Shown here: piece after piece, positions 1-57,062 of the stretch
Position numbering within the stretch: position 1 is the stretch's first letter
How the letters are laid out: each line of letters opens with the position of its first letter
DNA from: Escherichia phage phiEco32
DNA: 64,000 nucleotides
Direction: 5' to 3' (one strand)
Sequence record: NC_010324.1
Translations under genes and position numbers: made by a program
The notes under the pieces: model-generated
What the model was told of the DNA's origin: nothing
Databases searched by the model: none
Seen by the model: the letters and a program-made list of their open reading frames with translations, nothing else

Positions 1-1202
1 GAGGTGATGCTGGTTCTTCTGGTAGCAATGGGGTTGTATCAGATTCTGGTGCACCAAATATCACATACTCATCTCCTCATACAATGGTAACACTCGCCTC
101 TGCTTCGGGGCAGGTGGCAACTAATGGAGCAATCCAATCAATCACATCTACAGACGATGTGGCTCCAGTAGGGACTGGAGGTAAATATATATCCACAAAC
201 TTTGACGCATCGCGTTCCAGCGCTGTTTACGGTCGTTCTCTTTCTGAGGTAGTTCCTCGCAACTTTATTGGTGTTTGGACTATCCGTGCTCATGGAGGGT
301 TTACTGCTGCTAACACTTCTTGGTCTGTTATTAATAGTGATGCTTCAGAACAACCTACAGGTACACCAATTACTGGTGGGTTGGTTTCCTCTAAATATGT
401 AGTTGGAGGTGTTGATAAATACCGGTCCTCTATCCAGTTGCTAGGGTCTAATGAAGTTGATCTATCAACTAGAATTACCACCATAAATGATAGATATGCT
501 ATTGGGGCTGCAACTTGGGATTTTAAATTAGACGGTAAACTTCTTTTCAACAAGAGCCTGACTCCTAAGGGGACAGGGGAATCTCCGGGAAATACTTATT
601 TAACACTAGCTAACACTTGGATGAGTGCTGCATACAGTGGATACATAGGGTTTGTTGGTGGTGGGGTTGGGGTTTCTAATGGTGGTTGGAGAAACTTTAT
701 TTCTTTAGGCTCTCTAATCTTCCCAGACTCCAGTCACCCAACTGCTGTTATTTCTCAGGTTTATGACTATGACCTTTCTACAGGAAGCCAACCTAATGGA
801 GACATTGTCAGAAATACCTATTTCAGTGCTGAGAGCTACGATATTACCTTCGGGAACAACAGTGGGACTACTAATTACATCTTCAGTAAATCTCCAGTCT
901 CTGACGAACGACTCAAACATAGCATTAAGGAAGAAGGGACAGCCACAGCTCTTTCTAACCTAAATAAGATGGAGTATAAAACCTTTATCTATAATTATGA
1001 TGAGAAAGCAACTGTAAGGCGTGGGTTTATTGCCCAACAACTTGAAGCTATTGACCCTCAATATGTTAGGAAGTATAAAACCTTCAAAGGTACTGATACC
1101 CTAGCTTTAGATGAGAATGTGTTGCTTTTAGATGCAATTGCTGCTATTCAAGAGCTTACCAAAAAGGTTGAGGTTTTAGAAGCAAAATTGGCAGAGAAGT
1201 AA
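1..1202 (+). CDS. tail fibre/tailspike protein, C-terminal part (5' end lies outside window), with intramolecular-chaperone-like self-cleaving C-terminal domain
   Basis: Frame of ORF 84..1202 is open back to nt 3 with no stop, so the gene starts upstream of the window. C-terminal ~100 aa (VSDERLKHSIKEEGTA...YKTFIYNYDEKATVRRGFIAQQLEAIDPQYV) matches the pattern of fibre/endosialidase C-terminal chaperone domains. Confidence 0.6.
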   Translation, partial: GDAGSSGSNGVVSDSGAPNITYSSPHTMVTLASASGQVATNGAIQSITSTDDVAPVGTGGKYISTNFDASRSSAVYGRSLSEVVPRNFIGVWTIRAHGGFTAANTSWSVINSDASEQPTGTPITGGLVSSKYVVGGVDKYRSSIQLLGSNEVDLSTRITTINDRYAIGAATWDFKLDGKLLFNKSLTPKGTGESPGNTYLTLANTWMSAAYSGYIGFVGGGVGVSNGGWRNFISLGSLIFPDSSHPTAVISQVYDYDLSTGSQPNGDIVRNTYFSAESYDITFGNNSGTTNYIFSKSPVSDERLKHSIKEEGTATALSNLNKMEYKTFIYNYDEKATVRRGFIAQQLEAIDPQYVRKYKTFKGTDTLALDENVLLLDAIAAIQELTKKVEVLEAKLAEK

Positions 1203-1205
1203 TAT

Positions 1206-1223
1206 AAGCCCCTTCGGGGGCTT
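1206..1223 (+). terminator. GC hairpin with UUCG tetraloop after tail fibre gene (no U-tract; terminator or processing/stability element)
   Basis: aagcccc-ttcg-ggggctt, perfect 7-bp stem, 4 nt after the stop codon; downstream sequence is not T-rich. Confidence 0.3.
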
Positions 1224-1294
1224 TAGTAGTAAGTACCCTTAGTAAGTAATGAAACTAATATATCCCAAGAGGTTAATATATAGGAGACACTCAA

Positions 1295-1513
1295 ATGAAA
1301 ATGATGAAACAAGCTGCATACGGTTTAATATGTTTAGGTGCAGGCGTTGTGGTATCAACCGCAGTCCCTGTAGGCGCAGTTCATCCATTAGTAACTGTCC
1401 CTGCTCCAGTAGAGAAGCTCAGCTCTCAATGCAAGCAGAGAACAATTCAAAATAACCTAGTTGTTATTTGTCCTGATGCTGAATCTAACGCTCTGAGAAA
1501 GATACTACCTTAA
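1295..1513 (+). CDS. small membrane protein, holin candidate
   Basis: 72 aa; AGGAG 7 nt upstream of ATG; one hydrophobic segment (AAYGLICLGAGVVVSTAVPVGAV) then hydrophilic tail; sits immediately upstream of the lysozyme gene. Confidence 0.4.
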   Translation: MKMMKQAAYGLICLGAGVVVSTAVPVGAVHPLVTVPAPVEKLSSQCKQRTIQNNLVVICPDAESNALRKILP

Positions 1514-1542
1514 TTTAAAGGGACTACAAAAGGAGGTTAGAA

Positions 1543-2034
1543 ATGGATAACGTCGCATTGCCACCTGTACAACTAAACTTAAGCCCAGCTGGAATGGAAT
1601 TCATCATGAAGCATGAGGGTATGAGAACAAAGGCTTATAAAGATTCCGCAGGTATCTGGACTATATGTGTAGGGGCTACGCGCGATATGAATGGTTATCC
1701 GGTTAGACAAGGATTAACGTATTCTATAGAGGATTGTCTAGCTCTGCTAGATAGAGACACACAAGACTCTGTTCGTGCTACTCAGAAGAACATAAAGGTT
1801 CCTTTACTAGTTCATGAGTTTGATGCACTCACTTCTTTCAACTTCAATGTTGGCAGTGGGGCTTTGAGCACATCTAAGTTAAGGAAGGTTATCAATGGAG
1901 AAGTGAAAGGTGATGTATATTCCGAATTTCTTCGTTGGGATAAAATAACGGTCAAGGGAGAGAAGCAGAGAAGTCAGGGTCTTCATAATAGAAGGGTTGC
2001 AGAAGCTGATCTTTACACCGAAGGTAAATATTAA
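1543..2034 (+). CDS. lysozyme (GH24, T4/lambda-type muramidase), probable endolysin
   Basis: 163 aa; AAAGGAGG RBS; catalytic E-x8-D-x5-T arrangement in HEGMRTKAYKDSAGIWTICVGAT. Confidence 0.8.
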   Translation: MDNVALPPVQLNLSPAGMEFIMKHEGMRTKAYKDSAGIWTICVGATRDMNGYPVRQGLTYSIEDCLALLDRDTQDSVRATQKNIKVPLLVHEFDALTSFNFNVGSGALSTSKLRKVINGEVKGDVYSEFLRWDKITVKGEKQRSQGLHNRRVAEADLYTEGKY

Positions 2035-2046
2035 TGGAGGTGCCTT

Positions 2047-2850
2047 TTGGCTATCGAAACTAATGCGGTAGTTATTACCGACTTAAACCCACTCTATCCT
2101 AGAGACAGGGATTACATCTACGAAGGGGCGGCTCAAATCCGCCTCATTAAGCAAACGTTACAGAACACATTCCCCAATGTTACAGAACCGGTTGATATAG
2201 ATTCTGACACCTTTAAGATTATGTCAGAGAAGCTCAAGTTTACTGGTGATGCAATGGATGTTGGTGGTCTTATGATCAAGAACGTTACTCCGGGAACTGG
2301 TGACAAGGATGTTGTTACTAAAGGTCAGATGGAAGCGTTCATGAAGAACTGGATGGAGAATAAGCTCTATCGAATTGGTTCTTACTACATCACTGAAGAA
2401 GACATTAACCCCGGTGATTCAATCTCCTTAGGGTTTGGTTCTTGGGCTAAAGTGACTGGTGTCATTATGGGTACTGGTGTAGTAAACCCTGATGGCTCTG
2501 TTCCTAATGCTCAGAGAGTTGAGTTCCAAGCAGGTGGTACTGGTGGTCGTGTCTTCAATACTATTCGAACTGAGAACGTACCTTTGATGACTGTTAATGG
2601 CTCCAGCTTCTCTCTATCTAGTAATACTCACAGTCACAATATGGTATTTGGTCGTGGAGATGCTAGTGGTCATAACAGCTCACCAAACTGGTATAGTCCG
2701 GGTGGTGGTTACAGCCAGAGAACTGATAATGACACACATACTCATACAATCTCTGGTAGTGTAAGTCTTGGTCGTGATGATATCTCTCGTCAACCTATTA
2801 ACACTTTGCCACCATTCAGAGCAGCTCACATTTGGAGACGTATTAGCTAA
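2047..2850 (+). CDS. tail fibre-like / tail collar-like structural protein
   Basis: 267 aa; TTG start 5 nt after a strong GGAGGT SD; Gly-rich C-terminal half with HxH motifs (THSHNM, THTHTISGS) as in phage tail-collar/fibre proteins. Confidence 0.45.
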   Translation: MAIETNAVVITDLNPLYPRDRDYIYEGAAQIRLIKQTLQNTFPNVTEPVDIDSDTFKIMSEKLKFTGDAMDVGGLMIKNVTPGTGDKDVVTKGQMEAFMKNWMENKLYRIGSYYITEEDINPGDSISLGFGSWAKVTGVIMGTGVVNPDGSVPNAQRVEFQAGGTGGRVFNTIRTENVPLMTVNGSSFSLSSNTHSHNMVFGRGDASGHNSSPNWYSPGGGYSQRTDNDTHTHTISGSVSLGRDDISRQPINTLPPFRAAHIWRRIS

Positions 2851-2859
2851 GGAGGAATT

Positions 2860-5800
2860 ATGGCGCTGTATCCAATAAAGTCATTAGGTGCTGTAGGCGT
2901 TATCGCTGATCAGGCTCCGACAGACTTAGCTCCTAATGCTTTCACTAATGCTATAAATGCTCGATTTGTGGAGCAGAGAGTATTTAAGACGGGGGGCAAT
3001 GCCCCTCTTTCTTATGTAGATGAAGATAAGGATTTAACCCCTCTGTCTTTCATTTCTATGCCTTTCGATTATTATAGCGCAGGTAATAGCTTTCTTGTTG
3101 TAGGTACGGATAAGAAGTTATATAAACTGACAGATGAAAGCTTGACTGATATTAGCCGTAAGGTTGCTACAGTCACTAAAAAGGCTTCTGCCTCAATTAA
3201 GATTTATCCGGTTGTTTCTCAGATTGTTCCTAAAGAATCAACCATCTCAATGAACTTCAATCAGACCAAGAATCTAGAGGTTTCTCTTCTTCCTGCTGAT
3301 GCCAACAATACCGATCTTGTTTGGGAGGTTAGTAACTCATCTTATGGAAGTATTACAGTAGACCCTAGTGACTCTAAACTTGCTACTCTAACATCTTTTG
3401 AGAAAGAGGGTAATCTTGTAGTAACTATCTCTACTGCCAATGAATCCGTAGTGGCTCAGATTGCTGTTAATATCATAGATGGTGATTCAGGCATCTTCTT
3501 GAGTCAAGATACTGTTACAATTCGTAAGGGAGGGACTACTACTCTCACGGCTGTTACTGGCAAGACTCCTGTAACTTGGTCCAGCAGTAACGCTTCTATT
3601 GTATCCGTAACCCCTAACGCCAACTCTTTAACTGCTGTCATTACAGCGAATGGAGAAGGTAATGTAACAATCACTGCTGATAACGGGACTAAGACTGCTT
3701 CTTGTGAGATTGTTTCTATCCCTCAGATTGATAGTATCTCTTTAAGCCAGTCAGATGTTACTGTGAGTAGAGGTTCTCAGTACATCTTAACTGCTACCCT
3801 TTCTCCTGCTAACGCCCCTAATCAAAATATTACTTGGACCTCTTCTAATCCAAATATTGCAACAGTATCAGGGACTAGCACACAAGGGACGATCAACGCT
3901 CTACTTGCTGGTTTTACTGAGATTACAGCTACCACTGAAGAAGGCAACAGGATTGCTGTCTGTACTGTACGTGTAGATTTAGCTGGGAGGACAATGAGAA
4001 CAAGTGCTATGGCATTTGCCGCTCCTGTGTCAGAGTCAGTAGAAACTCAAGAGGAAGAAGTAGTAACTCCTCCTGAAAGTGAAGAGACGGTTTATTTTGC
4101 TGAGCCTACATCTGGTATTGATACATCAGGGATGTACGAAGGTAATAACTTCTACGATTACTCTAACGTGAATGACATTGAAGGTTTTGCAAGAGCTTCT
4201 TTACTGGCAACCCCTCTGTCATCTGTAACCTTAGATATTGTCAGCGCTTCTCTTGATGTTGGTGAAGAGATTGTCATTACAGCCACAGCTTCTCCAGAAG
4301 GTGAGTACTCTTATCAGTGGTCTGTTGATAAAACTGGTTATGTTTCTACAACCTCAGTTACTGGTAAATCTATCAAACTGGTTGCTCTTCGTAAAGGAGA
4401 GATTAACGTAACATGTACTGTCAGTCAGATGACTCAGAAGGATTACGATGCTTTTGATGACTACCCTTGGTATCACGCTGTTATCTCTAACTGTGCAGTT
4501 GCTACAACTCACTATGAAACTCCTCAGGTAAAAGAATTCGAATCAGAATACTTTGTAGACCTTCCGGGGTGGGGTGAGCAAACAGTTGTTGATAATGATG
4601 GAAACCCTTCAGTCAAGAAGTTTAACTGGAAATGTGAGAGAGTAAGATCTTTTAACAACCGTCTTTTTGCTCTGAATATGAGAGAGGCTAACGCTTCTGG
4701 TGTTACCACTAACTACCCTCTTCGTCTTCGTTGGTCTAACTTTGCCAACGAGAACAAGGCTCCTACACTGTGGGATGACTTTGCCTATGATCGAGTTGTG
4801 TCTTCGGACTTAGCTTCTAACATCGTAGGGCAGACTCAGGCTCTAGAGAATGGGTATGCTGGTTACATCGACTTAGCAGATTCTAATGGTAGCTTGATTG
4901 ATATCCTACCTCTTAAAGATTACTTGTTCGTTTATACAGAGTTTGAAACGTATATTGGTTCTCCGACTAATAACACGTACCAACCTCTAATGTTCAAGAA
5001 GCTCTTTAACGACTCTGGTATCCTTGCTCCCGAGTGTGTGGTTGAAGTAGAAGGTAGTCATTTCGTAGTTACTCAGAACGATGTAATCTTACACAACGGT
5101 GCAACCAAGAAGTCAATTGCATCTAACCGTGTTAAGAATATGTTGATTAATGAGGTGTGTCTGGTTAATCCTCTAGCAACTCGAGTACACTTGCATCAGG
5201 ATAAGAAAGAAGTTTGGGTTCTCTATGTAGGACCGGGGGAGCCAAAAGAAAGCTTCGCTTGTACTAAAGCTGCTGTATGGAACTACGAGTTTGATACTTG
5301 GTCTTTCCGTACTATCCCATATGCTCAGTGTATTGGTCTGGTTGATCCTCCTGTTTTAGAAAGAGGTCCAATCTGGTCTGACTTCCAAGAAATCACTTGG
5401 GATGACCCATCTATTAAAGAACTCGTTTGGAGAAAGGATGCAACAAACTTTAGACAGAGGGTTACGATAGTAGGTTCATTCTTGAAGGGATTCTATCAAG
5501 TGGATGTAGGTGCTCTTGATTATTTCTATGACAGGCTAAATGATGTTGTTATAGAGAAGCCTCTGGAAATGAGGTTGGAGAGGACTGGTATAGATTTTGA
5601 TAATGTGACTAATGAGTGGAATCAGAAGCATATTAACAGGTTCCGGCCTCAGACAACCGGTTCAGGTACTTACATATTTGAAGCTGGTGGTAGTCAATTC
5701 TCAAATGAATACGGACACCCACACACATCTAAGACATATACGATCGGTGTTGACAGGCACGTCTCGGTGAGACTGAACCATCCATACCTTTTCTATAATG

Positions 5801-49664: not shown

Positions 49665-49919
49665 CTACGAAGTTAAGATGATTTCAGCCTTAATAAACTT
49701 CTCACCAACAACCATATCACCAGAGATGACACGTAGTTCTCCAGTGCCTAGGTTAACAGCTCCAGCAGGTTGACAACCCCTGCTTTTAGCTGTCATCATA
49801 TAAACCTTTTGATTCTGGCACTCTTGGAGAGTGAACACATCTGACATATTTAGATCTCTGACACGGAGGATTTTTTCCTCTTTGTCTTTAACTTTAATGT
49901 TAATAATGCTCATATGCAC
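49665..49919 (-). CDS. small protein of expanded paralog family (member D)
   Basis: 84 aa; DLNMSDVFTL...GAVNLGTGELRV fits the family pattern. Confidence 0.5.
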   Translation of the reverse strand: MHMSIINIKVKDKEEKILRVRDLNMSDVFTLQECQNQKVYMMTAKSRGCQPAGAVNLGTGELRVISGDMVVGEKFIKAEIILTS

Positions 49920-50164
49920 TACTCCTGAACCACTGACATACGAATCATTTCTACCTGATCGTCAAGACCTTTAACAGATAACATACCTGTGGAAAGGTTT
50001 ACCACAGGAACCCAACCACTGGCTATACGGATGTTACCAGAAGCATTTTCAACCCTCATGTAATATTGAGGAGAAGCACTTCCGTTCTGAACCACGAAAG
50101 GATTTCCAGGAATAATTGTTTCCAACTTTACCGTATTATCCTTTTTCTTTGGGATGATTTTCAT
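49919..50164 (-). CDS. small protein of expanded paralog family (member C)
   Basis: 81 aa; MKIIPKKKDNTVKLETIIPGNPFVV...VVNLSTGML. Confidence 0.5.
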   Translation of the reverse strand: MKIIPKKKDNTVKLETIIPGNPFVVQNGSASPQYYMRVENASGNIRIASGWVPVVNLSTGMLSVKGLDDQVEMIRMSVVQE

Positions 50165-50412
50165 TATGTGTTATCCACCAAAAGTTCTGCCGACACAGGA
50201 ATAACTCGACAATAAATAGAAGGTGCTGTTACATTGCCATCAGACAGACGAAGAGTGATTGATCTGTCAGAGTTGATAGTAACGTTTGGACTTGCAGACA
50301 CAGACCCTTTGACATACAGGGTTGCATTGTCAGGAAACTTAAACACAGCTCCGCTGGGAAGTGAGTTGAGATCAACTGTAGTCACTTCTTCTTTCTTGTG
50401 AGTAATCTTCAT
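50164..50412 (-). CDS. small protein of expanded paralog family (member B)
   Basis: Start set to internal ATG (MKITHKKEE...), 1 nt after the upstream stop; DLNSLPSGAVFKF. Confidence 0.5.
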   Translation of the reverse strand: MKITHKKEEVTTVDLNSLPSGAVFKFPDNATLYVKGSVSASPNVTINSDRSITLRLSDGNVTAPSIYCRVIPVSAELLVDNT

Positions 50413-50413
50413 A

Positions 50414-50644
50414 TTATTTACCCTGAATAATAAGTTTAGATTCGAACAGATCAACAGTATTGGACAAAGGGACCGGAAAGAAAATATCTTTAGGGTTCCG
50501 AACACACATTGCAGAATGTTCCCCTGTTTTTATCCAGAATTTAGGGACTACATCGTCACCAGTAAAACGGAAAACATCTCCATTCTCCAAGTCAGAGAAA
50601 GTCTTGGAGGGTGTTTTGCTTTTTGGTACTAGCTCAAAATTCAT
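50414..50644 (-). CDS. small protein of expanded paralog family (member A)
   Basis: 76 aa; FSDLENGDVFRF...FWIKTGEHSAMCVRNP. Confidence 0.5.
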   Translation of the reverse strand: MNFELVPKSKTPSKTFSDLENGDVFRFTGDDVVPKFWIKTGEHSAMCVRNPKDIFFPVPLSNTVDLFESKLIIQGK

Positions 50645-50652
50645 CTTGATTC

Positions 50653-50976
50653 CTATTTAAGTTTGAGGCTAATGTTAAGGTGCATACATGCCCTGTTCTG
50701 TACAGCAGCATAACTCCTACCGAGCATGTCAGCCATTCTCTGAATAGACATGAACCCAGCATTACGGATAAGGAACTGATCGTCTTCTTCAGACCAGACT
50801 CTTCTTTGACGCTTACGTTTTATCTGGAAATTAGAACAGGCTCTGCTAATAACTGATTTATTAGTTTCCATGATATCTGCAACTGTTTCTAAAGAGTAGT
50901 TATTAACCAAGACTTCTAGTTGTTTTACTACTTCAGGAGTCCATCTGATTCTTTCAGGTTTCATTTTACCACCCAT
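50653..50976 (-). CDS. DNA-binding protein with two helix-turn-helix (Myb/SANT-like) repeats
   Basis: 107 aa; two repeats W-x-EE...NR (WTPEVVKQLEVLVNNYSLETVADIMETNKSVISRA; WSEEDDQFLIRNAGFMSIQRMADMLGRSYAAVQNRA). Confidence 0.45.
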   Translation of the reverse strand: MGGKMKPERIRWTPEVVKQLEVLVNNYSLETVADIMETNKSVISRACSNFQIKRKRQRRVWSEEDDQFLIRNAGFMSIQRMADMLGRSYAAVQNRACMHLNISLKLK

Positions 50977-51187
50977 GCCGACTTTTGACTAATACACCAT
51001 CAATTATTAGATAGTGTGAATGGTTAATCATATCCGAAGACAAGTCTCCGTGAGAGCTATTCCATTTAAGGAAATTCATATTTTCCCAATCAGTGTAGTG
51101 CTTTTTGGCTTCTTCCTCTACCTGACTAAGAGTTACCCTTCTGAAAGGATAAGGACTATGCTTTATAAGCGTCTCACATTTTGTCAT
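50966..51187 (-). CDS. hypothetical protein
   Basis: 73 aa; GGAGG RBS; preceded by a 290-bp intergenic region with a sigma70-like TTGAAT-17-TTATAT arrangement on the minus strand. Confidence 0.4.
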   Translation of the reverse strand: MTKCETLIKHSPYPFRRVTLSQVEEEAKKHYTDWENMNFLKWNSSHGDLSSDMINHSHYLIIDGVLVKSRHGW

Positions 51188-51604
51188 ACACCCTCCAATT
51201 AAACATTTATATAAGACTTGCTTAGATAAAGATTCAATAAATAGGGGGAGGGGGCGAATCCTCCCTTATCCTATTAATTAATATTGCATGTAAGACCTAA
51301 CAATCGGTTGCCTTTGTAGGAATAAGCGTAAAGCCAATCCAGCACTAAACTCCCGCCCCCTTAGTGGGCTGGGTTATTAAAGGGTAACGCCCTTATGGGC
51401 TAGTTACATGAATGTTAGTTTGATAGGAGATCTGAAGTCCTATCTCAAAGGACTCTCGTAAGAATCCTTCACGATATTACTTATTCATCTCTCGTCGGCT
51501 ATCTCTCCAAGCCAGCCAAGTGTAGGTTTTCAATTCTTCAAAGTCTTCTGGAGAGAATAGATAATCTTTGAAGGTGTTTCCAAACCACTCTAAAAATTCT
51601 TTAG

Positions 51605-51865
51605 TCATGAGTCCTCATACTTTTTGTTAGGAAGGATGAAATCCCAAAGAGCAGCCCATGCTACGAGTGCTATAAACAGTACAGCAATAATAGGCCACAA
51701 GAAAACCATAGCTGCTATCTTTCCTAGGTCTGGCTCACCATCCCAACCTCGGAAACACTGATTACCTTTAACATCTATAATCTTAATCAGAACACCTGAT
51801 ACTACTGATCCTATCAGATAGGCTATTAACACACTAACAAGACTGGTCACAAGGTTGATCTCCAC
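51605..51865 (-). CDS. small membrane protein (two TMDs)
   Basis: 86 aa; GTG start; LVSVLIAYLIGSVVSGVLI and AAMVFLWPIIAVLFIALVAWAALW. Confidence 0.4.
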   Translation of the reverse strand: MEINLVTSLVSVLIAYLIGSVVSGVLIKIIDVKGNQCFRGWDGEPDLGKIAAMVFLWPIIAVLFIALVAWAALWDFILPNKKYEDS

Positions 51866-52016
51866 ATGTTTTACAGATCACTGGTGAGTAACTACAGGCA
51901 GGATATACTGACACCCCATCAAACGTCTCACATCCACAATCAGGACATGTACCGTTGGATTCCATGTCATAATCGTCATCTATTTCACCACCGCCAAAAC
52001 AACTCATACAGGCTCC

Positions 52017-52238
52017 TTAGTAAACTAAACCTGTAGCCTTTGCATCAGGCTGAGGGACTACTTTTGCGCTAGGGCGATAACCATCCACTGAACCGTTCCA
52101 AAGATTGACACAGGTGATATATCCATCGTTTATGATGTCTGTTTTAATCCAGAAGTGTTTATCATGACCAAAAACACTTCCGTTTGGAAGGCTGGACAGC
52201 TCAACGGTTTTAAGTGACTGCTTAGAGTCTAGTTTCAT
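52017..52238 (-). CDS. small protein of expanded paralog family (member E)
   Basis: Start set to internal ATG (MKLDSKQS...); LSSLPNGSVFGHDKHFWIKTDIINDGYITCVNLWNGSV. Confidence 0.5.
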   Translation of the reverse strand: MKLDSKQSLKTVELSSLPNGSVFGHDKHFWIKTDIINDGYITCVNLWNGSVDGYRPSAKVVPQPDAKATGLVY

Positions 52239-52245
52239 AATAACC

Positions 52246-52494
52246 TCAATTATCGTAGCATGTATCCCAATACATGTAGTTAACGTATGTTCTCGGTTTG
52301 AGTCCATATATAATGAAGTGTGTCTTCTTAATCCTTTCCTTCAGCGTGTAATAAAGGCCATCACTGAAGTTACCAATCTTTACTTGGAAGCGTAAGGAGC
52401 GAGCATCCATTCGAAGCATAGAGATTAGCTGTACCCTACTACCTCCAGCCATCTCTTCAAGAAGCTTCTTTGTATTCCAATAATGAGCTGTCAT
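52246..52494 (-). CDS. hypothetical protein
   Basis: 82 aa; 1 nt after the upstream stop. Confidence 0.4.
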   Translation of the reverse strand: MTAHYWNTKKLLEEMAGGSRVQLISMLRMDARSLRFQVKIGNFSDGLYYTLKERIKKTHFIIYGLKPRTYVNYMYWDTCYDN

Positions 52495-52495
52495 A

Positions 52496-52777
52496 TTACC
52501 ACTCCTTACCGGTTGTTGTTACAGAACCACCACACCACTGTGCATCTGACAAGGTTTTAGTTTCCTCATCTACTGCTGCACCATTCAGGCATGAGATACC
52601 ACTATAACGCATATCAATTTCACCAGAAGGAACCTTCTCACCCTTATGCCAGCGAGAAACACAAACACCTTCCACTGCTACTGCACACCATCCATCAGGA
52701 CGGCTCTGTACGCAGCCTGTAAGGGCCACACAGACAAGGAAGATACAGATTAAGGATATTACACCACCCCAACTCAT
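52496..52777 (-). CDS. lipoprotein (signal peptide plus lipobox LTGC)
   Basis: 93 aa; MSWGGVISLICIFLVCVALTGC; mature part Cys-rich; first gene downstream of the tRNA. Confidence 0.55.
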   Translation of the reverse strand: MSWGGVISLICIFLVCVALTGCVQSRPDGWCAVAVEGVCVSRWHKGEKVPSGEIDMRYSGISCLNGAAVDEETKTLSDAQWCGGSVTTTGKEW

Positions 52778-52796
52778 ATCTACCTCCTATTTGATT

Positions 52797-52873
52797 TGGC
52801 GCACCCTACAGGATTCGAACCTGTAACCGACGGATTAGAAATCCGATGTTCTGTCCAATTGAACTAAGGGCGC
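52797..52873 (-). tRNA. tRNA-Arg (anticodon UCU), CCA encoded
   Basis: Minus-strand cloverleaf: acceptor GCGCCCT/AGGGTGC (one G-U), D-arm GTTC-AATTGGACA-GAAC, anticodon loop UUUCUAA, T-arm ACAGG-TTCGAAT-CCTGT, discriminator G then CCA. Acceptor and T-arm match E. coli argU from memory. Confidence 0.85.
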
Positions 52874-53053
52874 AGGATTATTTAGATCATGTCTCGCTTG
52901 GTGATATGACCACATGTTTTACACTGCACGATGTAGCGTAAACCTTTATGTTTCGTACCACCATAATCATCAGTGATCTTTAGTGTATACTTTTCAAGGA
53001 TTGTCCAATCATGCAGATGCAGTAGACGTTTAAACCACTTGAACATATTAACC

Positions 53054-53305
53054 TCAAGCACAAGCAGGGAGAGTGATGATTTTATACTTGCCTTCAAACT
53101 CTCCAAATAAACCCAAGAATGTAGGACTGTAAGTACCAGTGCAAACAAACTCATCAAATAATTCGTTATAGCTAGGCTTAATCTTCCAAGCCCATACATA
53201 ACCCATCTTGTCAATTGCAATGTAACGAGTGTTCAGAGGAACAGTCATCATTACACCGTCAACTTCAATCACTTTAGTGATTGGTGCAGCTTGGAAGTTT
53301 TTCAT
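53054..53305 (-). CDS. hypothetical protein
   Basis: Start set to internal ATG (MKNFQAAPI...) just after the upstream stop. Confidence 0.4.
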   Translation of the reverse strand: MKNFQAAPITKVIEVDGVMMTVPLNTRYIAIDKMGYVWAWKIKPSYNELFDEFVCTGTYSPTFLGLFGEFEGKYKIITLPACA

Positions 53306-53526
53306 CCTACTCTCCTGACGTTTAGGGTAGCTTGGTAAAATTTGACAGGACAACTTCTGTCAAACGTAAATCTTGTTTCAGGGTTATTTATACAGATAGC
53401 ATGTCTGTGCATAACCTTCATATATAAAGGAGGTTTTGTATCCCCATCTATCTCTAGAGAGAACACATCACCATTACGTAGACTACCAAAAGTATTATCC
53501 CTAGGCTCAGAGCGAACGATAATCAT
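53302..53526 (-). CDS. small protein of expanded paralog family (member F)
   Basis: 74 aa; FGSLRNGDVFSL...AICINNPETRF. Confidence 0.5.
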   Translation of the reverse strand: MIIVRSEPRDNTFGSLRNGDVFSLEIDGDTKPPLYMKVMHRHAICINNPETRFTFDRSCPVKFYQATLNVRRVG

Positions 53527-53699
53527 ACTTTACCTTTGATAAAAATATCATTACCACAGACACAGCATGAACGAACAACAGTAGCGCCACGCTGAACGAT
53601 ACGAACCTCTTCCTTAACCAGATTAATACGAGCACCACAGCAAGGAGAGTTGACATAAGAGTAACCAGCTTGTGTATTCTTGATTGTTTGCTTAGACAT
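53523..53699 (-). CDS. small zinc-ribbon-like protein (58 aa, below ORF-track threshold)
   Basis: Hand-called: MSKQTIKNTQAGYSYVNSPCCGARINLVKEEVRIVQRGATVVRSCCVCGNDIFIKGKV; AGAGGAA RBS; stop overlaps the next start (ATGA). Confidence 0.4.
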   Translation of the reverse strand: MSKQTIKNTQAGYSYVNSPCCGARINLVKEEVRIVQRGATVVRSCCVCGNDIFIKGKV

Positions 53700-53744
53700 T
53701 TGAGCTTCCTCTTGTTAGTTTAAGTAAGAGCTGTCCCTTAATTA

Positions 53745-53772
53745 AAACAACAAAGGCCGCCCGAAGGCAGCC
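53745..53772 (-). terminator. rho-independent terminator (minus strand)
   Basis: On minus strand ggcugcc-uucg-ggcggcc followed by uuuguuguuuu; directly after the stop of 53778..54029. Confidence 0.5.
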
Positions 53773-53777
53773 TCTCT

Positions 53778-54029
53778 TTATTGACTAACACCACGAATCA
53801 GATGATTCTGTAGCATCTCGTCTTCTGCATTATACAGGAACGCAAACATCAACTCCTTAGCCACATCTCTTGAGCAATTAAGACACTTAGAGATTTGCGT
53901 TAGTTGCATGTTGCGTTCTGTGTGTTCCATCAAGGCAATGCGAATGATCTCTCGCATACCTATCACATGGGTTGTCTTAACCGGCATAGGTCCAATTGCC
54001 TTGCTTATTACGGATGGCTGACATTGCAT
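53778..54029 (-). CDS. hypothetical protein (possible HTH)
   Basis: 83 aa; true start probably an internal Met (MPVKTT or MREII). Confidence 0.35.
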   Translation of the reverse strand: MQCQPSVISKAIGPMPVKTTHVIGMREIIRIALMEHTERNMQLTQISKCLNCSRDVAKELMFAFLYNAEDEMLQNHLIRGVSQ

Positions 54030-54475
54030 GAATCCAGAAGCCTTCCAGTTTCAGAGCACCATTAGCTACTGCATCCATACGTTCAGGGCGGTTCATACGT
54101 TTGGTTGATACTTTCATACATATCTCTCTTTGTTAGTGGAGGCATTATTGCCAGTTGATATAAGGGATAGCCCTAGTCAGTAGACTAATCCTGACCGCGT
54201 ACTCATCGCCGACCTTCTCTGCCTAAGAGTTCAGGTTCTAGAGCTATCTCTTATTCCAACTGGTGAAGACCTCCTACCCCTAGGAGATCTCCCAAATCCC
54301 AAACCAATACGTACCCCTACGTAGTGGAAAGTCTACCGAAATTGCACAGGTTTTAGTCTAACACCGGATGTTTGAGCAAGCTCTCCCTAGCGGTGCGGCA
54401 TATGCCTGATTGATATAGTTAACGAGGAACACCCTCACATAGCCCTCTGATAAACACAAGGGCTATAAGTCGGTG

Positions 54476-54694
54476 TTACTTTTGGGATAAACACAGATCG
54501 GGACGTGGCATAACAGTGGTTGATAGACCGAAGACTTCAACAGAACCACTATTCAGGTTAGCGGCCTTGCACAAACCATCAGGAGTTTTATCTTCTAACA
54601 TTAGCCAGAAACGTCTATCGTAGGAGAAAACATCACCACTTTTAACATCTTCTGCATTTGCATATTTAGGATAATCAACTACTTTAATTTCCAT
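54476..54694 (-). CDS. small protein of expanded paralog family (member G)
   Basis: 72 aa; AEDVKSGDVFSYDRRFWLML...CKAANLNSGSVEVF. Confidence 0.5.
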   Translation of the reverse strand: MEIKVVDYPKYANAEDVKSGDVFSYDRRFWLMLEDKTPDGLCKAANLNSGSVEVFGLSTTVMPRPDLCLSQK

Positions 54695-54952
54695 CTACTT
54701 ACCTTTATTAGTAATTACTACATCAGGGATAAGGATTACAGGAAGACTTGAATCAAGCTTCATAACCTGATTAGTTCTTAAACCAAGTACAACTGTTCCA
54801 GAATCTCTCCTGTCTGATTCTGTTACGTGTGGAGTGAATAAACTAACAACTAAATAGTGATCGACACGCGTAGCTTTAACTTGGAACACATCCCCAAGCT
54901 TTAAATCACCCACTGTGAGATCTGCGTCTTTCATCTCAAGATCAATCTTCAT
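54695..54952 (-). CDS. small protein of expanded paralog family (member H)
   Basis: 85 aa; VGDLKLGDVFQV...VVLGLRTNQVM. Confidence 0.5.
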   Translation of the reverse strand: MKIDLEMKDADLTVGDLKLGDVFQVKATRVDHYLVVSLFTPHVTESDRRDSGTVVLGLRTNQVMKLDSSLPVILIPDVVITNKGK

Positions 54953-55202
54953 CTTTAGCCCCTATATTGGTTATTTGGAGATCACTGCGTACTTGGCAGA
55001 CTTCATCCCGTTTAAAAGGCATAAGCTTTCCAGTTACCACATCAACACAGTTCACATAGTTATCTGCGTATAGTGTGTCGGTTCTAATATAAAGAGAGTC
55101 TTTACGCTCAAATAGAACGCCCGGCTTCATGTTGTTTAAGCGAAGCATTGTATGGTCGGATTTAATATTAACTTTCACTGTTAATCCCCTGCTGTTTAGC
55201 AA
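54942..55202 (-). CDS. small protein of expanded paralog family (member I)
   Basis: 86 aa; NMKPGVLFERKDSLYIRT...CVDVVTGKLM. Confidence 0.45.
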   Translation of the reverse strand: MLNSRGLTVKVNIKSDHTMLRLNNMKPGVLFERKDSLYIRTDTLYADNYVNCVDVVTGKLMPFKRDEVCQVRSDLQITNIGAKDED

Positions 55203-55464
55203 TAGCTACTCGCAAGTCTTCATTAGCACGAGCAAGGCGCAACACTTCGTGGTTGAGGTTCTGAAGACGTTTGTTTCTGTCCTCTACTTGCATAATAAGA
55301 TCGTTGAGTGTTACTTTAACTTTCTCATTATACATCTCATCCACTCGGACTAGAGATCTATACATTCTCTCCCAGCTTGCTGCTTTGTTTCTGAGAACAA
55401 TAAACCCTATAACGCTGATAGTTAAACAGAGTACAAAAAGGAATTTATATACTTCTAAAGTCAT
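55168..55464 (-). CDS. membrane-anchored coiled-coil protein
   Basis: 98 aa; N-terminal TMD FLFVLCLTISVIGFIVL then helical charged region. Confidence 0.4.
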   Translation of the reverse strand: MTLEVYKFLFVLCLTISVIGFIVLRNKAASWERMYRSLVRVDEMYNEKVKVTLNDLIMQVEDRNKRLQNLNHEVLRLARANEDLRVAIAKQQGINSES

Positions 55465-56053: not shown

Positions 56054-56125
56054 TAGCTGTGCCGTTGTTATCAGAACTTGCTACCTCCTGTTTTGTTGTT
56101 TCAATAAACACCCTCGAAAAGATGC

Positions 56126-56155
56126 TTATAGAAACACCCCTCCCTTTCGGGAGAG
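56126..56155 (-). terminator. terminator hairpin downstream of the YadA-like gene (minus strand)
   Basis: On minus strand ccucuccc-gaaa-gggagggg (one G-U) followed by uguuucua...cuuuuc. Confidence 0.4.
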
Positions 56156-56163
56156 GCACTATC

Positions 56164-56844
56164 TTACCACTCGTAACTTACACCAGCGCCCAGAACAGCG
56201 TCACTCTCTGAAGTCATTGCCACTGATGCTTTAGTTACTACGTTTTCATTGAAACGAGCACTAACACCAATAGCAAGAGCAGATTCACCATCGTAAGCAC
56301 CTACCCCAGCACCAACAGAGAAAGCAGATCCTTGACTTACTTGCGGGATGTTAGCCATTGCAGCCACGCCAGAAATACCAGCAGAGGCATGATCACGGTT
56401 ACGGTCTACTTGTTTTTGCAAAGAAGCAAAACGTTTGTTGGTGGATTGTTCCAGAGCTTTGATGGATTTGGCGTTAGCATTAACGGCAGACATATCTGCA
56501 TCTTTACCATTTTTACCATTTAATCCGTCAACGCCATTCAAACCTGCTGCACCAGTTAGGCCAGTTTCGCCTTTCTTACCATCTGCACCAGAATCGCCTT
56601 TTTCACCTTGAGCGCCATCTTTACCATCAATGCCGTCTTTACCATCAATGCCATTAGCGCCAGTGTCGCCTTTCTCTCCCTGATCACCTTTTTCACCTTT
56701 AAACCAATCTCCGATACCGCAACCATTGGTAGATTGACCTACACCACAACCTCCATTGCCATTGCCATTGTTTCCACTTTTAGCAAAAACAGGCGATGCC
56801 ATTACGGACAGAGCTAGGATTGATGATAATACAATTGCTTTCAT
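56164..56844 (-). CDS. YadA-like trimeric autotransporter-type protein with collagen-like Gly-X-Y repeats
   Basis: Start set to internal ATG (MKAIVLSSILALSVMASPVFA signal peptide). About 20 Gly-X-Y triplets (GEKGDQGEKGDTGANGIDGKDGIDGKDG...). C-terminal ~70 aa (AGISGVAAMANIPQ...AIGVSARFNENVVTKASVAMTSESDAVLGAGVSYEW) matches a YadA-type anchor. Confidence 0.6.
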   Translation of the reverse strand: MKAIVLSSILALSVMASPVFAKSGNNGNGNGGCGVGQSTNGCGIGDWFKGEKGDQGEKGDTGANGIDGKDGIDGKDGAQGEKGDSGADGKKGETGLTGAAGLNGVDGLNGKNGKDADMSAVNANAKSIKALEQSTNKRFASLQKQVDRNRDHASAGISGVAAMANIPQVSQGSAFSVGAGVGAYDGESALAIGVSARFNENVVTKASVAMTSESDAVLGAGVSYEW

Positions 56845-57062
56845 TTCATAGATTCCTATACAGTAGACATAAAAAAGCCCCAGCCGTAGCCGGGGCAAAC
56901 CTGAAAGCAACACATGACCGTTGCTATAAACACACTCGCAAATGCACTTACAGCAACGCAAAAAAGCCGCTCAAAGGCGGCTATGCGGAAGCTTCAAATG
57001 GGGAGAGGGCACGACGCTACAGAAAGAGCGTCACAGTACTAAAAGAGGGGGCTATATTCCTA

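Follow-up and report, generated by a model that had tools for sequence, protein, structure and literature searches.

A family of nine small paralogous proteins with a predicted SH3-like fold in the early region of Escherichia phage phiEco32

In a stretch of 64,000 nucleotides from the genome of Escherichia phage phiEco32 (NC_010324.1; the whole stretch is referred to here as the window), the minus strand carries nine small open reading frames (ORFs), with stop codons at positions 49665, 49919, 50164, 50414, 52017, 53302, 54476, 54695, and 54942. By sequence-profile comparison they are a single homologous family of paralogs, and their fold is predicted to be a five-stranded SH3-like beta-barrel. 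They are truly coding, and their proteins are under clear purifying selection. The reading favored here, at about even odds (roughly 0.5), is that the products are early, non-enzymatic binder proteins, each of which would have its own macromolecular target in the host or the phage. What is new is the definition of the family, whose expansion in the phage subfamily Gordonclarkvirinae is unusual; the fold class is already well known.

Homology, coding status, and predicted fold

A preliminary description, made from the sequence of the window alone, had proposed that these ORFs are at least nine copies of one small protein. Pairwise comparison bears this out only in part. With phmmer just four pairs are significant (50414-53302 at 1e-7, 52017-54476 at 2e-8, 52017-54942 at 5e-4, and 52017-50164 at 3e-3, each gene being named by its stop coordinate), the other pairs are not, and the paralogs are mutually 17-40% identical. 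Profile tests were decisive for all nine. When hidden Markov models (HMMs) were built from eight members at a time, the ninth always ranked first among the 635 stop-to-stop ORFs of the window (E 3.9e-8 to 1.4e-4), with the best unrelated ORF at E 0.1-2. An HMM built from 19 remote metagenomic relatives, none of which has a blastp match to any ORF of the related Kuravirus phages, matched all nine as well (E 4.8e-13 to 4.5e-6, next ORF 0.54); unlike this remote-only test, the leave-one-out test is independent. Cross-matches to PHROGs families also connect all nine. On profile evidence, then, the proposed common ancestry stands, and the count is exact rather than a minimum: profile searches found no tenth member in the window, and in the related phage SU10 the complete genome likewise encodes nine, which all map to 63.8-69.4 kb.

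The shared motif pattern on which the original grouping was based is recovered in the alignments as a conserved family core (L-x-x-G-D-V-F / Y-M-K / (C)V-N-L-x-x-G / V), except that the third block is degenerate in four members (50414, 53302, 54695, and 50164). Gene starts were chosen by profile register, a Shine-Dalgarno (SD)-like motif, and annotation in relatives. Three of the mechanically called ORFs (113, 96, and 86 aa) exceed the real gene lengths, and after start correction the products are 72-85 aa long, small as first described but not quite of the 70-86 aa range given then. The tandem arrangement with abutting or overlapping genes is evident in the spacing of successive family genes inside two clusters, which is -11, 0, +1, -1, and +5 nt.

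Each of the nine starts is preceded, at a distance of 9-15 nt, by an SD-like element rich in purines, and the reading frames are kept across six Kuravirus genomes. For the 13 orthologous subfamilies found in those genomes, the Nei-Gojobori ratio of nonsynonymous to synonymous substitution rates between orthologs (dN/dS) is 0.06-0.35, with dS up to 1.1. That the ORFs are real genes was therefore upheld. The proposal of diversifying duplication was not, since purifying selection acts on the orthologs in each subfamily and the paralogs, at their low mutual identities, look old.

The 49-56 kb region is 91-94% identical to that of the Kuravirus phages ES17, SU10, MN03, NJ01, Paul, and Bas91, members of the subfamily Gordonclarkvirinae (phiEco32-like C3 podophages). 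By blastn the counterpart of the window is SU10 13.2-77.3 kb, so the whole leftward-transcribed middle and early arm lies inside it. The SU10 coding sequences 69-125 and the right-arm genes of phage YF01 have been placed in the early class through homology to phiEco32; right-arm genes are transcribed by the host sigma-70 RNA polymerase, are mostly hypothetical, and are thought to act in host takeover (PMC4281155, PMC9965538, PMC8948821). By this homology-based assignment the nine family genes are in the early-class region, as the preliminary description had supposed.

The fold was modeled with AlphaFold2 on the 52017 protein, from an alignment of 130 sequences (the nine window proteins and 121 relatives). 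The predicted local distance difference test score (pLDDT) was 85.3, up from 81 in a first model, and about 95 in the core. The model has five strands following a short strand and turn, and forms a partly open SH3-like barrel, which agrees with the earlier suggestion of one small fold. The closest folds are domain I of EF-P, eIF5A, the C-terminal domain of ribosomal protein L2, the Spt5 KOW domain, and integrase C-terminal domains; the likeness to EF-P domain I, Tudor, and KOW domains is one of fold alone. Structure matches in BFVD (E 1e-5 to 1e-3) are to small uncharacterized proteins of N4, PaP3, T4-like, and Vibrio phages. There is no detectable sequence relationship to the RNA-polymerase-binding domains of CarD and UvrD (its C-terminal domain), to the Spt5/NusG KOW domains, to the SH3-like domain of DtxR, or to the VapX antitoxin. 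Tudor, KOW, and SH3-like modules also usually occur in larger proteins or toxin-antitoxin pairs, whereas the present family consists of free-standing, multicopy phage early proteins.

Well-conserved positions in the family alignment are Met1, Lys/Ile 2-3, Leu17, Gly20-Asp21, Phe23, Tyr30-Met31-Lys32, Val44-Asn45-Leu46, Gly49, and Val60. The invariant ones lie in strands and tight turns, where they would build the scaffold, and no conserved polar set typical of a catalytic site was found in the alignment. Variation in length and sequence is concentrated in three places: the turn between beta1 and beta2, the loop of the beta2-beta3 hairpin, and the C-terminal tail. Insertions cluster behind profile position 26 (at most 8 residues), behind position 35 (at most 15), and at the C-terminus. 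Comparison of orthologs shows roughly twofold higher variability in the loops than in the strands; the C-terminal tail, although unconserved between paralogs, is the segment that orthologs conserve best (0.076). Such a pattern is what one would expect of a rigid scaffold whose binding surfaces differ from one subfamily to the next.

Breadth and history of the family

When 1.84 billion cluster representatives were searched exhaustively with the profile (E <= 1e-3), 1,467 proteins or clusters (at 50% identity) were returned, and nearly all of the 150 that were listed among these matches are 67-87 aa long. Less sensitive searches recovered close relatives only. A word-indexed protein search with the nine-sequence profile, limited by its word index, found Kuravirus orthologs at >=62% identity, and tblastn against GenBank phages, which is too insensitive for this family, matched only Gordonclarkvirinae with the 52017 protein and nothing with a remote member. 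The remote members sit on phage-like contigs of 37-99 kb, among arrays of tiny unannotated genes. On one such contig, of 99.5 kb (Logan ERR14023037), there are two adjacent family members, and a called gene of 586 aa (496-2256, minus strand) has 11 in-frame stops under genetic code 11, which suggests that this phage uses a reassigned stop codon.

The family is not confined to the Kuraviruses and occurs widely among virulent phages. Several named phages have members of similar size, located among early or middle small genes. These are gp21 of coliphage N4 (E 2.4e-17 with the full profile, 1.6e-6 with an HMM of the nine only), gp7 of Pseudomonas phage LUZ24 (profile E 1.9e-10), and gp110, gp112, gp131, and gp133 of Salmonella phage 7-11 (E 5e-13 to 3e-5). 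They differ from phiEco32 in having one to four copies rather than nine. In LUZ24, a stop-to-stop ORF of 77 codons that lies unannotated between gp13 and gp14 (5100-5330, plus strand) weakly matches the C-terminal half of the profile (E 0.004-0.008); it may be a second member, either degenerate or overlooked in annotation. Yersinia phage phiR1-RT, whose proteins have been screened for toxicity, has no member in its first 50 kb.

Some relatives are two-domain tandem fusions of 139-162 aa, each half of which scores independently (E 1e-8 to 1e-14). Longer repeat proteins are less clear. A 478-aa protein from a Tenacibaculum metagenome-assembled genome (P0214) has an SprT-like metalloprotease domain followed by five tandem repeats of about 55 aa, at 8-22 bits each, and a 515-aa protein (P0130) has about six weaker ones; these may be cellular multi-repeat relatives, the scores per repeat being too weak for certain membership. 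Two other large repeat proteins, P0142 (RCC1 repeats) and P0163 (fn3 repeats according to Pfam), were rejected as spurious short-strand matches, and P0121 (3,353 aa, with 20 short matched stretches) looks like more of the same.

The earlier impression that the family was not a recognized one was borne out in the databases searched. Pfam gave no match at E <= 0.01 for any of the 130 aligned members and, at E <= 1, only two chance-level matches among the nine; NCBIfam gave scattered chance matches, none relevant; none of 19 members matched a PADLOC model at E <= 0.01; and the family profile found nothing below E 0.49 among Protein Data Bank (PDB) sequences. By sequence the proteins do not belong to the curated SH3, KOW, Tudor, or Sm families, and they have no sequence similarity to characterized phage anti-defence proteins with solved structures. 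PHROGs does contain them, divided among families 6570, 7832, 7431, 8365, 16423, 9955, 12612, 10911, and 34455, all of "unknown function"; its entries give neither a function, nor a fold, nor a copy-number pattern. Eight of these families (all but 34455) account for the nine: every protein matches one of them at E 1e-29 to 1e-48 and has weak matches to others. Across the 130-sequence alignment, phrog_6570 is matched by 122 members, phrog_7832 by 112, and phrog_7431 by 86. Since remote members match many PHROGs at once, the families that PHROGs treats as separate and unrelated form one superfamily, with a common predicted fold. Nine "hypothetical proteins" under eight unrelated PHROGs thereby become one definable domain family suitable for curation. 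Literature searches on the Kuravirus paralogs, on their anti-defence roles, and on the function of N4 gp21 turned up nothing relevant. The paralogs are not mentioned in the SU10, YF01, and 7-11 papers (PMC4281155, PMC9965538, PMC8948821), nor in the passages of the BASEL paper that deal with Kuravirus and Gordonclarkvirinae (PMC11990801).

Copy numbers are similar within the Kuraviruses (nine in the window, SU10, and ES17, ten in NJ01, eight in Paul and Bas91) and vary outside them: at least nine in a related 77-kb metagenomic contig, four in 7-11, one and possibly two in LUZ24, one in the 20 kb of N4 that were examined, and one or two in the remaining metagenomic loci. Five of the 13 subfamilies, those of 54942, 54695, 52017, 49919, and 49665, are core ones found in all six Kuravirus genomes. 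The other eight are variable, with mosaic presence and absence, and are swapped at the same map slots. Four pairs resemble local duplicates (50414/53302, 52017/54476, 50164/c8, and c9/c10, where c8 to c10 denote subfamilies that the window lacks). By blastp, most Kuravirus subfamilies are closer to non-Kuravirus metagenomic proteins than to one another, a comparison that is only indicative for proteins of about 70 residues. Together with the low mutual identity of the paralogs and the presence of members in N4, LUZ24, and 7-11, this points to a set that is old or partly assembled by exchange, and not to a recent burst in place; it looks like old paralogs plus some exchange. LUZ24, 7-11, and the Kuraviruses also have in common a module of amidoligase, glutamine amidotransferase, and RimK-like genes, so the family is probably ancestral to this wider group and most expanded in the Gordonclarkvirinae.

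Possible roles during infection

Host-takeover and anti-defence factors come mainly from small early phage proteins of unknown function, most of which lack a family assignment. In the favored explanation, the nine genes would be paralogs of a small, single-domain, non-enzymatic SH3-like barrel, expressed from the early arm that is transcribed by host RNA polymerase. Soon after infection each would dock, by its variable loops or C-terminal tail, onto a different host (or phage) macromolecule and redirect or neutralize it, with the core set acting in host takeover and the variable set in strain-specific counter-defence. The mosaic presence and absence of eight of the 13 subfamilies at fixed slots points toward such a host-interaction or anti-defence role. 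Neighboring paralogs might act as pairs or hetero-oligomers: the tandem genes here, coupled in translation, and the true two-domain fusions elsewhere, suggest in the manner of a Rosetta-stone argument that neighbors may work together. In practical terms the division into five core and eight variable subfamilies provides a short, ordered list of candidates for experiments.

Several points weigh against this explanation. The top fold matches are ribosome- and translation-associated. Selection is purifying over the whole gene, with no arms-race signature, though loops do vary more than strands. The proteome of an SU10 lysate contained six other early products and no detected member of the family. 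The remote-only HMM test is supportive rather than fully independent, because its 19 sequences were selected with a profile that contained the nine. Finally, LUZ24 Gp7 (YP_001671880, 77 aa) was among 13 early proteins expressed in P. aeruginosa, where only gp4, gp6, gp9, and gp11 impaired growth; as the sole member to have been assayed, it was not growth-inhibitory and lends no positive support to any role (PMC4635203). Its harmlessness argues against a host shut-off toxin.

A bolder version of the binder explanation is tentative, and rather unlikely as a whole. The fixed SH3-like core would display beta1-beta2 and beta2-beta3 loops that vary, and tails particular to each subfamily; the Gordonclarkvirinae would have accumulated an arsenal of 8-10 such proteins, some in tandem pairs, each with its own host target, a defence or hub protein, to neutralize. 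Such an arsenal would account for the broad defence resistance of these phages. The passages of the BASEL paper on them describe an unusual resistance to restriction-modification and to the other defences tested, without known DNA modification or inhibitors (PMC11990801). On that observation an anti-defence role for the variable members is attractive, though unproven. The phages are genetically accessible, as BASEL isolates on E. coli K-12. If specificity were encoded in the loops, the scaffold could be of interest to protein engineers.

Antagonism of host immunity has been demonstrated for other viral multigene families, including phage anti-CRISPR clusters and those of African swine fever virus and poxviruses. 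The present family is like them in consisting of diverged copies of a small fold, in an early or accessory cluster, with core and variable sets. It is unlike them in that selection among orthologs is purifying and that immune antagonism is only conjectured here.

Other roles for an early small barrel are less probable. One is that the proteins bind nucleic acids, like Sm, KOW, Tudor, or Sso7d-like domains, and act early in infection to regulate or chaperone transcription, translation, or RNA stability. The folds nearest to the barrel have RNA or ribosome associations (EF-P domain I, eIF5A, the L2 C-terminal domain, Spt5 KOW, integrase C-terminal domains), and some paralogs are basic, with isoelectric points of 8.7-9.2. 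The range for the nine is 4.9-9.2, however, most of them being neutral or acidic, and the family median of 5.3 argues against a general role of this kind, as does the lack of a conserved basic or aromatic surface motif beyond the structural Tyr-x-Lys and of any match to the KOW, Sm, or cold-shock models of Pfam. SprT-type proteases act on DNA-protein adducts, so the domain repeats in the Tenacibaculum SprT-like protein would fit nucleic-acid binding too, though these repeats match at only 8-22 bits apiece; the idea as a whole seems unlikely. Similarly doubtful is a role confined to the phage, as adaptors or chaperones in replication, in the phage sigma factor switch, or in assembly, with the host not targeted. 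Conservation of five subfamilies in all six Kuraviruses, each under purifying selection, would suit this, as would the lack of harm from the LUZ24 member expressed alone (PMC4635203) and the occurrence of the family in phages with a common replication and amidoligase module (LUZ24, 7-11, and the phiEco32-like phages). Set against it, eight of 13 subfamilies are dispensable among close relatives, copies range from one to about ten despite similar core machinery, and the neighbors are unannotated small early genes rather than replication or assembly genes.

The resemblance to EF-P calls for separate comment, because mimics of EF-P domain I or the eIF5A N-domain could bias translation during infection by binding either the ribosome or the enzymes that modify EF-P. 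Strand order and the NL-x-TG turn do look EF-P-like by eye. Beyond the fold there is no likeness in sequence or profile: none of the 130 aligned members matches EFP_N (PF08207) in Pfam, and hhalign of the family profile with E. coli EF-P domain I gave a probability of 0.14% (E 0.43), a weak test with a single-sequence template. The beta2-beta3 hairpin that corresponds to the loop with the modified Lys/Arg in EF-P, KPGKG in the E. coli protein, is the main site of indels here (0-15 inserted residues) and the least conserved segment, and the OB-fold domains II and III of EF-P are missing, the proteins stopping after the barrel. Homology to EF-P was accordingly rejected at the level of sequence, the family was filed as an SH3-like small beta-barrel, and mimicry is very improbable. 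The least credible alternative is that the ORFs are non-functional, with motifs due to chance or to repeated non-coding DNA. The missing peptides in the SU10 lysate are what would be expected in that case, but it is refuted by the substitution ratios and the frames kept in six genomes, and also sits poorly with the SD-like motifs, profile E-values down to 1e-13, some 1,470 related clusters, and a confident fold prediction.

The individual genes and their surroundings

All nine genes are on the minus strand and are described here in the direction of transcription. The first cluster begins with 54942-55178 (78 aa, PHROG 16423), a core gene in all six Kuraviruses, with a GTG start (VKVNIK...); it was matched by the remote-only HMM at E 2.2e-11 and by the leave-one-out HMM at 1.4e-5, and its ortholog dN/dS is 0.19. 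The start of the next gene, 54695-54952 (85 aa, PHROG 9955), overlaps it by 11 nt; this is also a core subfamily, with a long beta2-beta3 loop (3.2e-9 and 1.7e-5 in the same two tests, dN/dS 0.21). With a gap of 0 to the latter comes 54476-54694 (72 aa, PHROG 6570), found in five of six Kuraviruses (1.2e-9 and 7.6e-7, dN/dS 0.06).

Two members stand apart from the clusters. The gene at 53302-53526 (74 aa, PHROG 10911) is variable, occurring in three of six Kuraviruses, and is one of those with a degenerate VNLxxG block (4.5e-6 and 9.8e-6, dN/dS 0.06). The core gene at 52017-52238 (73 aa, PHROG 6570), whose sequence was the one modeled, is the most central member of the family (4.5e-12 and 3.9e-8, dN/dS 0.17).

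The remaining four form a tandem cluster. The first, 50414-50644 (76 aa, PHROG 10911), is variable, in two of six genomes (6.1e-9 and 6.3e-7). It is followed by 50164-50412 (82 aa, PHROG 7832), also variable, in four of six Kuraviruses, the start of which is an internal ATG of the 113-aa mechanical ORF (2e-11 and 1.4e-4, dN/dS 0.25). The core gene 49919-50164 (81 aa, PHROG 7431) shares a TAATG stop/start overlap with this upstream member (4.8e-13 and 1.1e-4, dN/dS 0.26). Last in the cluster is 49665-49913 (82 aa, PHROG 12612), another core gene, with an ATG start behind AGGAG (2.9e-12 and 1.3e-4, dN/dS 0.26).

Between 48000 and 60000 of the window, hairpins resembling intrinsic terminators are enriched (22, vs. 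8.1 +/- 2.7 in shuffled sequences), with strong minus-strand examples at 53775-53752, 56896-56877, and 58310-58283. This suggests that transcription of the early arm is split among several units. Matches to sigma-70-like promoters, at 16 vs. 27 expected, show no enrichment in the same interval.

Other small genes are interspersed with or adjoin the family. Two minus-strand ORFs among the family genes, 53523-53699 and 51834-52007, encode Cys-rich products of 58 and 57 aa with paired or clustered cysteines, an arrangement that recalls zinc ribbons; neither has a Pfam match. A tRNA-Arg gene (anticodon TCT) at 52797-52873 on the minus strand, annotated identically in related Kuraviruses, is directly upstream of a gene of the Phage_lipoprotein family (52496-52777, PF24052) and two genes upstream of 52017. 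Adjoining the family cluster, a 98-aa ORF at 55168-55464 (minus strand) has no Pfam match and is labeled "DNA helicase" in several related genomes; at far below helicase size, this looks like a propagated annotation error. Somewhat further upstream, the minus-strand ORF 56164-56847 combines collagen Gly-X-Y repeats (PF01391, E 4e-9) with a YadA-like membrane anchor (PF03895, E 3e-19) and, by eye, a signal-peptide-like N-terminus, making it a trimeric-autotransporter-like gene within the early region. The blastn alignment with SU10 is interrupted here (window 56094-56868, SU10 70190-70196), so this ORF is an insertion (moron) relative to that phage.

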